Positions 8,549 through 12,551 of a stretch of DNA of 64,000 nucleotides are shown here, in pieces. The position numbers and the translations under genes are program-made. Under the pieces are notes generated by a model that was not told the DNA's origin, did no database searches, and saw nothing but the letters and a program-made list of their open reading frames with translations. The stretch lies in the NCBI GenBank assembly GCA_965248925.1, contig CBDFLE010000006.1, positions 2,752,001 to 2,816,000 on the forward strand, given 5' to 3'. Source of the DNA: Candidatus Multivoradales bacterium (GTDB taxonomy: Bacteria > Acidobacteriota > Thermoanaerobaculia > Multivoradales > J023). How positions within the stretch are numbered: position 1 is the first letter of the stretch; each line of letters starts with the position of its first letter.

Positions 8549-9724
8549 TCACTCCGAGTCCTGGTCTCCTGGTCTGATGATCTCGGGTACAGCTGAAGGT
8601 TCGCTGGCCAGGGTGTCGAAATCAGCCTTGGCGAATCTGAACGTCGGGCTGGTGCCGGCGTAGCCGCGCAGCCAGACGAATCGCTGGGTGGTGGCGATTT
8701 GAGTCAAAGTCACGGGCTTTGCCCCCTTGGGCAATCGCAGCTCCAGTCGCCGGGATTCACCGGTCGAAGGATCGAGCAGATCAACCGCGGGCCATTCGGC
8801 CAGCGCCGCGGCATCGATCAGGATCAGCAATCGCTCTCCGGAGTCGTCCCAGGTGATGTCGCGGATCACCGGGGTGTAGCGAGCCGTCAGGCGCTTCCCT
8901 TTGGCCCTCGGCCCCGCCTGCGGCGGCCGCGAGGCATCCGCACCGAAATCTTGCTGGGCTGCGGCCATTGCATCATCTTCTTCCGGGGTGGCCTCGATGT
9001 GCTCTTGCTCTTTGAAGGCCAGCGCCGGGTCGTTGAAGATCGTCTGTGTTTCGAGGTCTCGGTCTAGTTGATAGATCCTGTAGCTCGCCAGCTCTGCGGC
9101 GTAAAGGTGCTGCCCACTCCAGGCAAGTCTCAGTGTCTGGCCGACGGCGGCACTGCCGCTGAGCAGCGGATCCTCTACGATCAGGCCTTTCTCGCTGACT
9201 TCGAGATTGCGATCGAGCACGATTACCCGAGGGATCTCCTCGCCAAATTGCCGCCGGCCGATGAAGGCGCCCGGCTTAGCCGGATGCGGCAGGTTGGTCA
9301 GTGACACAACCCACTCGCGGGTGGAGATCTGAGCGATATCCCCAGGCTGGAAGATCTCCACCTGGCCCTTGGAGACGCCCTTGTCAGTGTAGAGAAAAAC
9401 CCCTTTGTGGCCAGAGAAAGAAAGAGTGCCCCCGCTAGCATCCAACCGGCTAAATCGCGGCACCGGCCGTACCTGGGCCGATAGCTTTTTCGCCTTGCCC
9501 CAGGTGCTACCGCTTTCCAAGTAACGGCGGACTTCCAGGGATGAGGCGTCGAAGAGAATCATTTCTTGGCCCGATGCGGTCATCAGCAGGTCGTCGGAAG
9601 AACTGAGCTCGCCCAAGTCTCGCGGCGCGGCTTCCAGCGTCAAAGCCTCGCCGAAAACGGGTACTCCCACCAGATATAGGAGGCAAGGCAAGCTGAATCG
9701 AAGTAAGCAAAGAAGTGTTCTCAT
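8549..9724 (-). CDS. Secreted protein, probable 6-bladed beta-propeller
   Basis: Signal-peptide-like N-terminus from ATG 9724 (MRTLLCLLRFSLPCLLYLVGVPVFG). Blade-like motifs: LRLAWSGQHLYAAELASYRIYQLDRD, IRDITWDDSGERLLILID, AVDLLDPSTGE. Confidence 0.6.
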   Translation of the reverse strand: MRTLLCLLRFSLPCLLYLVGVPVFGEALTLEAAPRDLGELSSSDDLLMTASGQEMILFDASSLEVRRYLESGSTWGKAKKLSAQVRPVPRFSRLDASGGTLSFSGHKGVFLYTDKGVSKGQVEIFQPGDIAQISTREWVVSLTNLPHPAKPGAFIGRRQFGEEIPRVIVLDRNLEVSEKGLIVEDPLLSGSAAVGQTLRLAWSGQHLYAAELASYRIYQLDRDLETQTIFNDPALAFKEQEHIEATPEEDDAMAAAQQDFGADASRPPQAGPRAKGKRLTARYTPVIRDITWDDSGERLLILIDAAALAEWPAVDLLDPSTGESRRLELRLPKGAKPVTLTQIATTQRFVWLRGYAGTSPTFRFAKADFDTLASEPSAVPEIIRPGDQDSE

Positions 9725-9824
9725 GGCGCCCAGGTGGCTTTCAGCAGCCGGCGTAGTCTGGAATATAACCAAAATCTAGAATCTCGTGATTCTCGTCGTG
9801 GAGCACACAAATCAGGCCACCATC

Positions 9825-9938
9825 CTAGCAATTGCAAAAATCATGCACCGCAGCAACTGGCTGGGCGATCGCCAGAGTGGCAACGAAGATGGCGGCTAGA
9901 GCATGTAGAAAGCGTTTTCTCAACATTTTCTGGTCCAC
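9825..9938 (-). CDS. Small secreted Cys-containing peptide, not in the ORF track (37 aa to TAG; frame continues 27 more codons to TGA at 9741-9743)
   Basis: AAGGAG RBS at 9947-9952, GTG at 9938. Translation MDQKMLRKRFLHALAAIFVATLAIAQPVAA-VHDFCNC*DGGLICVLHDENHEILDFGYIPDYAGC*. Classical Sec signal (basic N-terminus, hydrophobic core, VAA cleavage site). Fills the gap between two co-oriented genes. Confidence 0.7.
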   Translation of the reverse strand: MDQKMLRKRFLHALAAIFVATLAIAQPVAAVHDFCNC

Positions 9939-9989
9939 TTTAGTTTCTCCTTGGGTATATAAGCAGTTAGGCGTCGACAATAATCAGAT

Positions 9990-10400
9990 TCAACGACTGG
10001 CGGGTTCAACCACTAAGGTTGGAGGATCACCTTTGACACGCCACTTGCAGTGGGCTGCACTGCAAATAGTGTCGAGAGCTTCGGCAACGGACGTTCGACC
10101 CGTCTCGCCTTTGAAGCTACCAGTAACCGCTGGGTCGACTTCGAGCCGGTCGCCAAAGAAGCCGGTGGCGATGAACCACAGCAGCCAGCGGATGTCATCA
10201 TTGCGGGAACCGAGTTCCACCACTCCAGACAGAGGGTCGCTGGCAGAGTGGTCAGTGGCGGGAGGGCTGGTGTAGCCGAGAGCCGGTTGCTCGGCGGCGG
10301 TCCTGCAACCTGTGGTGACGGCCAAGAAGGCCACGCCAACAAGAAGGGCAAGCAGCGAAAGCCGAAGTAGCTCTTGAAACAAATCAGAGAAGTGAAGCAA
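9990..10400 (-). CDS. Lipoprotein with a stand-alone STN/secretin-N0-like domain
   Basis: AGGAGG RBS before TTG, lipobox TTGC, STN-like pattern DIRWLL...LEVDPAVTGSF...SVAEALDTICSAAHCKWRVKG..LVVEP. Confidence 0.6.
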   Translation of the reverse strand: MLHFSDLFQELLRLSLLALLVGVAFLAVTTGCRTAAEQPALGYTSPPATDHSASDPLSGVVELGSRNDDIRWLLWFIATGFFGDRLEVDPAVTGSFKGETGRTSVAEALDTICSAAHCKWRVKGDPPTLVVEPASR

Positions 10401-10436
10401 CGCAAGACCTCCTGAAATAAATAGCTAGACAGCTTA

Positions 10437-10465
10437 GACGTAACACGGGATATTTTCCCTGTCAA
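10437..10465 (-). promoter_or_regulatory. Candidate sigma70 promoter for the leftward lipoprotein-peptide-propeller operon
   Basis: Minus strand TTGACA-N17-TACGTC with TG at the extended -10 position; the -10 match is imperfect. Confidence 0.4.
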
Positions 10466-10659
10466 GAGATTTAGGTTAATCGGCCAGCGCCAAGCTTACG
10501 CCGAGAGGGGCGCCAGGCAAGTAGTCCGAGGTTGTGGAGCCGGAACTGTGGCTACTGCCTTTGCTTGCGTCCGACCGGCTCGTCGATGCCGTAGCTGGGC
10601 ACTGTGGCCGGGACCTCGGCCAGCTTTTGCAATGCGCCAACAGAGCGCCAACCGTCGTA

Positions 10660-10716
10660 TTGCACATCCGAAATGTCAATCGACCCGTCCAAATGAACAC
10701 GCAGGCTGCACATCCG
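10660..10716 (+). promoter_or_regulatory. Two copies of TGCACATCCG (10661-10670, 10707-10716), candidate operator
   Basis: Exact 10-mer direct repeat in the divergent intergenic region; a third copy is at 12739-12748. Confidence 0.45.
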
Positions 10717-10844
10717 CGCGAAGCGGCAAAATCGCCGACCGATGCAACCGAGGGGGACGCCGCAAGTCCAGAAAGGAAGACCAGATCTTCTGTTAGAGTG
10801 TGCCACCAGTAGGGAACGCTATAGGAACTCCGGGGAGGATCACC

Positions 10845-12551
10845 ATGAAGCTCGACCAGCACCACGCCAAACTCGCGGCCGCCGCGGAAGAGAGCTTGCA
10901 GAAGATCCGCGAGGACCAGAAGAAGCTCAACAGCAGGCTCAGGCCGTTACTAGAGTATCTGGAAGAACACCTCTTCCTGCCTGGCCTGGGGGTCGACCAG
11001 CTGCGGCTGAAGTGCGGCATCAAGAGTCGCTCGGTGGGCGCTGAGTTTAGCCATGCGCTGGGGGTACCGCTGAAGACCTACATGGAAGACCGCCGGCTGG
11101 AGACTGCGGTTGAGCTACTGCGCCACAAAGATCTGCGGATCAGAGAAATCAGCGAGCTGATGGGCTGTTATTCGAACGTTTCGGTCTTCAGCCGCGCCTT
11201 CACGCGCTGGAGCAATCTGCATGCGAATACTCTGCGCCAACAGCTACAAGCCAAGTCGCCACTGCCCAGCGTGCCGACCAGCGAGATGCTGACCCGAGGT
11301 TTTTGGTACCCGGCGATGCTGGGCAAATTGGATGCGGAGCAAGAATATCGATTCTGCCGCCATGTCCAGGCGCTCTACCCCAAGAGCCTCAGCCTCGCCA
11401 CCGCGGAGTCGAGTGACGACTCCGCGCCGCGCCCGGAGCGAGTTGACGGGCGCCTGCTCGAGCGCTGTAGGGGCGAAGAGATCTGGCAAGAGATCGCCGA
11501 TCAACCGCTTCAGCAGCAGCGCCAGCGGGTGCTGGGGGTGGAATTCCGTAGCACCGAATTTTTCGACCTCCTGCTGCGCAAGAGCCGCGAGGAAGGCCGC
11601 AAAGACCGCCAACGAGGGGTCGATATCGCTCTCTTGGCCCTCGACACCATCGACGCCAGTTCTGACTTGTTGACCGAGGACCCCGCGGAGCTGCATGCCA
11701 GGGGCTGGGCCTGGGTCGGCAACGCTCGCCGTCTGGCGCTCGATTTACCCGGCGCCGAACAGGCTTTCAACCGGGCAGAAATAGACCTGGCGTCGCGACT
11801 TGGGGGCCGAGCGCTCTTTGCCAAGGCCGAGATCTGGCTCTGCCGGGCCGGTCTCCGCCTCGATCAGCGGCGTTTCGATGAGGCGCTCGAACTGGCCAAT
11901 CTTGCAGTACCGATTCTTGACAAATCAGATGATCAACACCGGCTTGTCGAAGCGAGAGTCTTCCGGGCTCGAATTCGCTGCTATAGCGGTGATTTCGCAG
12001 TAGTTGAAGAAATCGAAGAGCTTCTCTGCCGATTGGCGAATAAGCCGCAAAGGTGGCTCGAGTTTTCCGCGCTTACAGTCCTGGCTTGTGCCCAGGCCCT
12101 GAGTGACCAGCATCAGCTGGCTCACTCCACCGTGGGCCGGGCCAAGAAGGTTGCTAGTGGTCTCTCTAACTTGTCCGCGTTCTCCTTACTGGACTGGATA
12201 GAAGGCCTGATGGCCAGTGCCAAGGAACCGTTGGCCAAGGCTGAGGCCCTTCTGCTCTCGGCCAGAGCAGGATTTCACCGGTCTGACGAAGTCTGGTTTG
12301 GAGTTGGCGTTACACTCGATCTGGCTATCCTCTACGCCAGGCAGGGGCGAAACGCAGAGGTTCTCGGCCTGACCGCCAAAGTTTTTCCGGTTCTCAGAGC
12401 ATTTGGATTCGACCACAAGATCTCCGTAGCCGTCTCTTTATTGGAGAAGGAGATCACCCTGAACCAACCAGCGCTCGAAAGCCTGTTGCAGATCAGGGCG
12501 GTCATTGAGGCAGTTCTCAAGCTACCGCCACTACAGATCGCGGACATCTAG
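10845..12551 (+). CDS. AraC-family HTH regulator fused to a TPR-like helical-repeat domain
   Basis: GGAGG RBS, ATG 10845. AraC signature YMEDRRLETAVELLRHKDLRIREISELMGCYSNVSVFSRAFTRW. C-terminal helical repeats (ARGWAWVGNARRLALDLPGAEQAFNRAE; LRLDQRRFDEALELA; LAILYARQGRNAEV). Confidence 0.85.
   Translation: MKLDQHHAKLAAAAEESLQKIREDQKKLNSRLRPLLEYLEEHLFLPGLGVDQLRLKCGIKSRSVGAEFSHALGVPLKTYMEDRRLETAVELLRHKDLRIREISELMGCYSNVSVFSRAFTRWSNLHANTLRQQLQAKSPLPSVPTSEMLTRGFWYPAMLGKLDAEQEYRFCRHVQALYPKSLSLATAESSDDSAPRPERVDGRLLERCRGEEIWQEIADQPLQQQRQRVLGVEFRSTEFFDLLLRKSREEGRKDRQRGVDIALLALDTIDASSDLLTEDPAELHARGWAWVGNARRLALDLPGAEQAFNRAEIDLASRLGGRALFAKAEIWLCRAGLRLDQRRFDEALELANLAVPILDKSDDQHRLVEARVFRARIRCYSGDFAVVEEIEELLCRLANKPQRWLEFSALTVLACAQALSDQHQLAHSTVGRAKKVASGLSNLSAFSLLDWIEGLMASAKEPLAKAEALLLSARAGFHRSDEVWFGVGVTLDLAILYARQGRNAEVLGLTAKVFPVLRAFGFDHKISVAVSLLEKEITLNQPALESLLQIRAVIEAVLKLPPLQIADI

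Follow-up and report, generated by a model that had tools for sequence, protein, structure and literature searches.

The window and its small gene

The sequence analysed here, which we call the window, is a stretch of 64,000 nucleotides from a contig of a Candidatus Multivoradales bacterium. Its minus strand carries a small frame, interrupted by an in-frame TAG codon, that lies between two intact genes; we refer to the three together as a cassette. The features of the locus are the following, in order of position.

8549..9724, minus strand: exported 391-aa six-bladed NHL-like beta-propeller, intact (predicted model and fold match)
9741..9743, minus strand: ancestral stop TGA of the small gene, 16 nt ahead of the next gene (read directly)
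9744..9824, minus strand: 27 codons, open and homologous, covering strands 2 and 3, Ile43-Cys44 and the C-terminal Cys65 (post-TAG profile match)
9825..9827, minus strand: in-frame TAG at a conserved Trp codon that is TGG in homologues (codon-by-codon comparison)
9828..9848, minus strand: first seven mature codons, VHDFCNC, including Cys35 and Cys37 (pre-TAG profile match)
9849..9938, minus strand: GTG start and 30-codon Sec-type signal peptide ending in ...PVAA (alignable with those of 25 relatives)
9947..9950, minus strand: Shine-Dalgarno-like GGAG, with 8 nt between it and the GTG (read directly)
9990..10400, minus strand: lipoprotein-like protein of 136 aa, intact, with a conserved ...D..IC....C.W domain at its C-terminus (lipobox by eye)
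10800..12551, plus strand: divergent AraC-type HTH regulator with a TPR-like part (HTH_18, E 8.9e-10); its link to the cassette is positional and uncertain

The start codon itself occupies 9938-9936, and homologues carry GGAG, GGAGG or GGGAG at the place equivalent to the Shine-Dalgarno sequence. The signal peptide has the expected layout of a basic start and a hydrophobic core, with a cleavage site whose position is predicted from the alignment. If the TAG were read through, the mature part would comprise 35 residues with four cysteines, as a first-pass annotation of this DNA had proposed; every feature and coordinate which that annotation gave, from the ribosome-binding site, the GTG, the 30-aa signal and the VHDFCNC stretch to the TAG, the TGA and the 16-nt gap to the next gene, proved correct, and the next gene begins with the ATG at 9724. 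With a TTG start, the truncated frame can also be read as a 51-aa ORF at window positions 9825-9980 on the minus strand.

No terminator-like site was found between the three genes of the window cassette, and for this reason the small gene is almost certainly co-transcribed with the propeller. The spacing is typical: in nine loci inspected by eye the small ORF stops 11-18 nt before the propeller ATG. A search of window positions 9500-10900 against Rfam gave no matches.

The mini-protein family and the neighbouring propeller

Judged from its sequence, the small frame is a true gene of an unannotated family, far beyond what chance would produce. We scanned the 8-Mb genome, divided into 199,020 stop-to-stop segments with a minimum length of 20 aa, with a family profile that was built from 16 intact relatives and excluded the window copy. 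The matches ranked as follows.

Paralogue L006: E 6.1e-28
Paralogue L005: E 1.4e-24
Window segment after the TAG: E 2.6e-7
Window segment before the TAG: E 1.5e-4
Next match, noise: E 0.39

The two halves of the window frame are adjacent and in the same frame, and each is recognised separately. Because both match a profile that contains nothing from the window, and do so right after the two paralogues, the frame is to be regarded as a genuine gene rather than a chance ORF, which bears out the micropeptide gene postulated by the first-pass annotation.

Pattern and profile searches extended the family beyond this genome. In a first set of 41 genomes, a small ORF with a signal peptide lies upstream of each propeller homologue, and the motif C-N-C-W-[DE]-G-x-x-I-C followed by a terminal Cys is present in the mature part at four of the five other loci. 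At the DNA level, the window genome has three copies of the pattern CNC-W/stop-[DE]-G-xx-IC, two with TGG and one, in the window, with TAG. The same pattern gave three matches in 185,579 species genomes (two real ones, in Acidobacteriota MAGs, and one by chance) and five in a metagenome collection (two real, three by chance). The chance matches L012, L013, L014 and L017 were rejected as having neither a signal peptide nor an open frame around the motif; L013, the sole pattern match besides the window to carry a TAG, is among them. When 1.84 billion representative proteins were searched exhaustively with a profile, 12 matches had E <= 0.001, and nine of these are family proteins of 56-66 aa. 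A word-index protein search retrieved five family proteins, and the word index is thus incomplete for this family. The intact 62-aa L005 paralogue is absent from the word-index matches, and the window copy from the results of both protein-collection searches. The second of these searches, in which the window frame was entered with its TAG read as X, gave no candidate at all and also missed the known relative P0013, which shares several 5-residue words with that query. Part of the mini-protein family thus seems to escape gene callers, although these blanks are weak evidence.

We found no Pfam or NCBIfam model for the mini-protein and no solved relative by sequence, nothing relevant to it among the matches listed by full-text literature searches, and no lead in a protein atlas comparison (top score 0.77). 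PADLOC, whose library covers phage defence only, gave no matches for six cassette-type proteins including the propeller. The mini-protein family and its cassette are undescribed and belong to no named family.

Conservation within the family was assessed in an alignment of 26 sequences (A8), that is, the window copy and 25 other members, all of which align over the N-terminal Sec-type signal region. Cys37 is the only invariant residue (25/25), followed by Cys65 at or next to the C-terminus (24/25); the codons of both are present in the window frame, that of Cys65 after the TAG. Cys35 and Cys44 are each found in 18 of the 25 members, and the more distant members have two cysteines only. Since the 18 sequences are the same ones for both residues, this co-occurrence suggests disulfides Cys35-Cys44 and Cys37-Cys65, and members of the family would be held by one or two such bonds. 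A model of the mature L006 peptide (pLDDT 93.8) has strands at residues 3-9, 12-18 and 24-30, with the position of the window TAG at the end of strand 1. An intact product would thus, after removal of the signal, be a mini-protein of about 35 residues folded as a three-stranded antiparallel sheet with two disulfides. A fold search with the peptide model returned no match at E <= 0.001, only generic three-stranded sheets within larger proteins, and a profile-profile comparison of the peptide with a propeller blade gave a probability of 0.4%.

The gene that follows was called a propeller in the first-pass annotation, and its predicted model is indeed a six-bladed NHL-like fold (pLDDT 79.8, pTM 0.80), with a disordered insert at residues 256-280. 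In fold comparisons the model comes closest to the NHL domain of Brat (Z 22.8, rmsd 3.1, 254 of the 279 residues of 1q7f_A; TM 0.52/0.70 by Foldseek), and the model also superposes on TRIM2 (Z 22.0), peptidylglycine amidating lyase (21.9) and the sensor domain of PknD (18.5), with rmsd values of 3.1-3.5 over 240-262 residues for the listed propellers. By sequence, the window propeller has no Pfam or NCBIfam match, five of its homologues match no Pfam family, and the best solved chain is at E 0.34. Its relatives include P0007 (86% identity); in the first set of 41 genomes, the same contig encodes two paralogues, and three further genomes have homologues.

Of 300 genomes from one Acidobacteriota order, 16 contain matches to a propeller profile. 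The 19 strong propeller places (E <= 1.4e-78) differ in what lies directly upstream.

Intact family ORF: 13 places
Nonsense copy: 1 (the window)
Remnants: 2 (L040, frameshifted and with the signal part lost; L041, last ~46 nt only)
Possible remnant at a contig end: 1 (L026)
None, with a ribosomal-protein-like ORF in its place: 1 (L034)
Upstream DNA too short to assess: 1 (L042)

The pair is also present in both metagenome loci, and a propeller lies downstream of the small ORF in all eight of the loci compared for this arrangement. The first-pass annotation had named the absence of homologous small ORFs before related propellers as the observation that would speak against its gene; these counts show them to be a regular companion. 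Among eight weaker propeller places, the four that were inspected had no family member. A small ORF of another kind, Cys-rich and beginning like a signal peptide, is found at G495:C4 (L037:2578-2835, minus strand); it ends 175 nt ahead of a distant homologue of the propeller (E 1.4e-36), and the mini-protein profile does not match it.

The third member of the cassette, the lipoprotein-like gene, immediately precedes the small gene in the window and in L018, L019, L020/L011 and L015. L021 and L022 lack it at this position, and L016, which has little upstream DNA, gave no match. The lipoprotein-like protein matches no Pfam family; an STN-like identity for its C-terminal domain was considered and rejected, as no member of alignment A9 matched even at E 10. 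The mini-protein would most likely be a binding partner of the propeller, either within the envelope or extracellularly, and the three cassette proteins would act together in the envelope.

The window genome holds three such cassettes, two of them intact paralogues on the same contig, and their surroundings differ. Both intact paralogues are set among genes of mobile elements: transposases (IS66, ISL3 and others) and integrase-core genes lie upstream of the cassette at L018 (G000:C6:1356000-1372000), and the one at L019 (G000:C6:2293000-2309000) is flanked by a Mu-type transposase, a fragment of a type IV coupling protein and a MobC-like gene; that of the window sits between housekeeping genes (mtnA-like, purD) and the regulator. 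After the L018 cassette comes a hybrid sensor of 1416 aa (L018:9572-13819, plus strand), whose domains are Reg_prop/Y_Y_Y, HisKA, HATPase, receiver and AraC HTH. An AraC-type output is common to this neighbour and to the window regulator, which may hint at shared regulation.

The amber codon and its explanations

What the TAG replaces is clear from the relatives. The codons around it read TGC AAT TGC TAG GAT GGT in the window and TGC AAY TGY TGG GAN GGN in homologues, with TGG at the TAG position in all four homologues compared at the codon level and in the other real pattern matches. In the 25 other members of the alignment, the column holds Trp in 15, Tyr in four, Ile in two, and Phe, Leu, Val and Asp in one each. 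The first-pass annotation had suggested looking for a sense codon in orthologues, and it is found throughout: the uninterrupted frame is a feature of the family that the window copy lacks, with its TAG at 9827-9825 and no stop in any of the 25 relatives. Trp is also retained in both paralogues and in P0013, the nearest relative (62-63% identity; the remaining members are at most 40% identical). Since the homologues have TGG and P0013 has Trp, the window codon is best read as derived, by a G-to-A transition in a Trp codon. Identity to P0013 amounts to 21 of 27 residues after the TAG, as against 19 of 37 before it, and Ile43, Cys44 and Cys65 are all retained. A tail without visible decay implies that the mutation is recent relative to the split from the P0013 lineage.

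We therefore think it likely, and hold with some confidence, that the window copy is a recent nonsense allele, or young pseudogene, of an exported mini-protein, while two paralogous cassettes at other places of the genome are intact. The amber codon would then probably be an ordinary nonsense mutation of recent date, one of the options listed in the first-pass annotation and the one that the Trp codon kept in P0013 and in both paralogues favours. A single G-to-A change would have turned TGG into TAG, so that translation would end after strand 1 and the exported product would be VHDFCNC, without strands 2 and 3 and without both disulfide partners. The remainder of the frame would not yet have had time to decay, and the two paralogous cassettes on the same contig could supply the function. 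The early stop may, more speculatively, also lower translation of the propeller; this is conceivable given that the small ORF usually runs almost up to the propeller ATG, which here lacks a clear ribosome-binding site.

The competing explanations differ in whether the base is real and in what the ribosome makes of it. A sequencing or consensus error, with the organism truly having TGG and an intact gene, would fit a one-base difference within a G run (TGGG vs TAGG) and a frame that is otherwise fully conserved. Against it, Logan contigs from four runs show no differences from the window over positions 9500-10300 at a word depth of 14-27, although the four runs come from one sample of one study, which is possibly the assembly's own source. 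Each run was assembled separately by another pipeline, and the identity of the four contigs disfavours a slip in assembly or polishing. The comparison was made with assembled contigs, which hide minor alleles, and given that they represent one sample, a minor TGG allele or a platform-specific error at the TAG may be conceived of. We accordingly regard the error raised in the first-pass annotation as quite improbable. Leaky termination, in which partial readthrough of the TAG would give a low level of the full-length mini-protein beside the 7-residue stub, draws on the same conserved continuation, which is open to the ancestral stop with all conserved positions kept; indeed, the 27 intact codons after the TAG fit continued translation and a very recent mutation equally well. 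What weighs against leakiness is found elsewhere in the genome and the family. None of the 48 tRNAs detected by aragorn in this 96.9% complete genome has the anticodon CUA, and the best PylS match scored 25.3 bits against a cut-off of 178.15 (one of 14 control genomes in that search was above the cut-off). TAG is an ordinary stop here: it ends 806 of the 2633 open frames of at least 400 codons (31%), and within the family it closes L006, the paralogous peptide gene, and six members that are more distant. The column is free of stops in the other members. The RNA after the TAG folds no better than shuffled sequences (z 0.09), and basal near-cognate readthrough would rarely restore a conserved hydrophobic residue. 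Leaky termination is thus unlikely in our estimate, and the stop readthrough that the first-pass annotation had entertained finds, as a programmed event, no support in the same observations. Nothing speaks in favour of recoding, though basal leakiness may occur.

The third rival holds that VHDFCNC, a 7-residue CxC peptide, is a new secreted signal. The signal peptide and the ribosome-binding site are intact, and the stub is for that reason probably made and exported. Truncation is seen in none of the 25 relatives, the stub corresponds to only strand 1 of a three-stranded fold and lacks the partner of the one invariant Cys, and there is no sign of selection for the stop. Any functional truncation would have to be very recent, because the codons it set free still agree with P0013 at 21 of 27 positions. 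The pheromone-sized peptide of the first-pass annotation thus finds little to stand on, and we consider a functional truncation very improbable.

A tRNA-Sec with anticodon UCA is encoded at G000:C6:1930728-1930827. UGA recoding thus exists in this organism, with no UAG counterpart found among the 48 tRNAs. Compared with known amber recoding by pyrrolysine or suppressor tRNAs, the window likewise has an in-frame TAG followed by an open and conserved continuation; it differs in that its genome has neither a tRNA-CUA nor PylS, uses TAG as an ordinary stop and has no structure downstream of it.

Known systems, apparent loss of the peptide gene and significance

The propeller superposes on six-bladed NHL-type structures such as Brat, TRIM2, TRIM71, PknD and the amidating lyase. 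It differs from them in being exported, in lacking a sequence match to Pfam or NCBIfam propeller families and in its insert at residues 256-280; to our knowledge, none of the listed NHL-type structures is encoded with a mini-protein partner. Two other kinds of gene pair invite comparison. Periplasmic amine dehydrogenases combine a propeller subunit with a small Cys/Trp-rich subunit (MauB/MauA; beta/gamma of quinohemoprotein amine dehydrogenase), and small subunits of the MauA or QhpC type have an invariant cofactor Trp and nearby maturation genes (a MauG-like haem protein or the radical-SAM QhpD). The cassette resembles them in pairing the gene of an exported propeller (about 350-390 aa) with that of a small, Cys-rich product in which a conserved Trp stands beside a Cys. 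In contrast to the cofactor residue, the Trp column of the family varies (Trp in 15 of 25 members; Tyr, Ile, Phe, Leu, Val or Asp in the other ten), and the small partner has only about 35 residues and a plain Sec signal. Pfam domains in 90 ORFs around six cassettes included no radical-SAM, haem or MauG-like genes, and amine dehydrogenases were not among the best 50 rows of either propeller fold search. On account of the variable Trp and of the lack of maturation genes around the six cassettes, we rejected the mini-protein as an amine-dehydrogenase small subunit.

Sec-dependent small disulfide bacteriocins (e.g., of the enterocin P type), which have a neighbouring immunity gene, offer the other parallel. 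They share with the cassette a Sec signal fused to a small Cys peptide, a small envelope protein beside it, neighbourhoods of mobile elements, and loss of the peptide gene while neighbours persist. They differ in that we found no similarity in sequence or fold and that the constant partner here, a propeller of 390 aa, belongs to no known type of immunity protein; we know of no killing activity for the cassette. The resemblance to amine-dehydrogenase pairs and to Sec-dependent bacteriocins is only formal.

The loss pattern itself deserves attention. In L040 (G667:C266) and L041 (G591:C354), the peptide gene of a second cassette is a remnant beside propeller frames that are open (443 and 401 aa, respectively); both genomes are fragmented MAGs, and the frameshift in L040 may have arisen in assembly. 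Together with the nonsense copy of the window, these remnants suggest that the peptide gene was lost repeatedly while the propeller was kept. It is conceivable, if rather doubtful, that the mini-protein is a secreted ligand of which the propeller is the receptor or binding partner, and that the two make up a new envelope module of one Acidobacteriota order, which multiplies on mobile elements and in which losses of the peptide leave 'solo' receptors. If this were true, such solo receptors would answer peptides from other cassettes or from neighbouring cells, like orphan quorum-sensing receptors. A toxin-immunity relationship is an alternative for the same loss pattern.

The amber codon with which this analysis began calls for no new biology, and its value lies in the family that it has brought to light: a conserved exported mini-protein of about 35 residues, fixed before an equally unannotated six-bladed propeller. 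The cassette offers a concrete and testable pair for the study of small secreted proteins, few of which have been characterised in this phylum, and the way in which the peptide gene has apparently been lost several times next to a retained propeller hints at how such pairs evolve.
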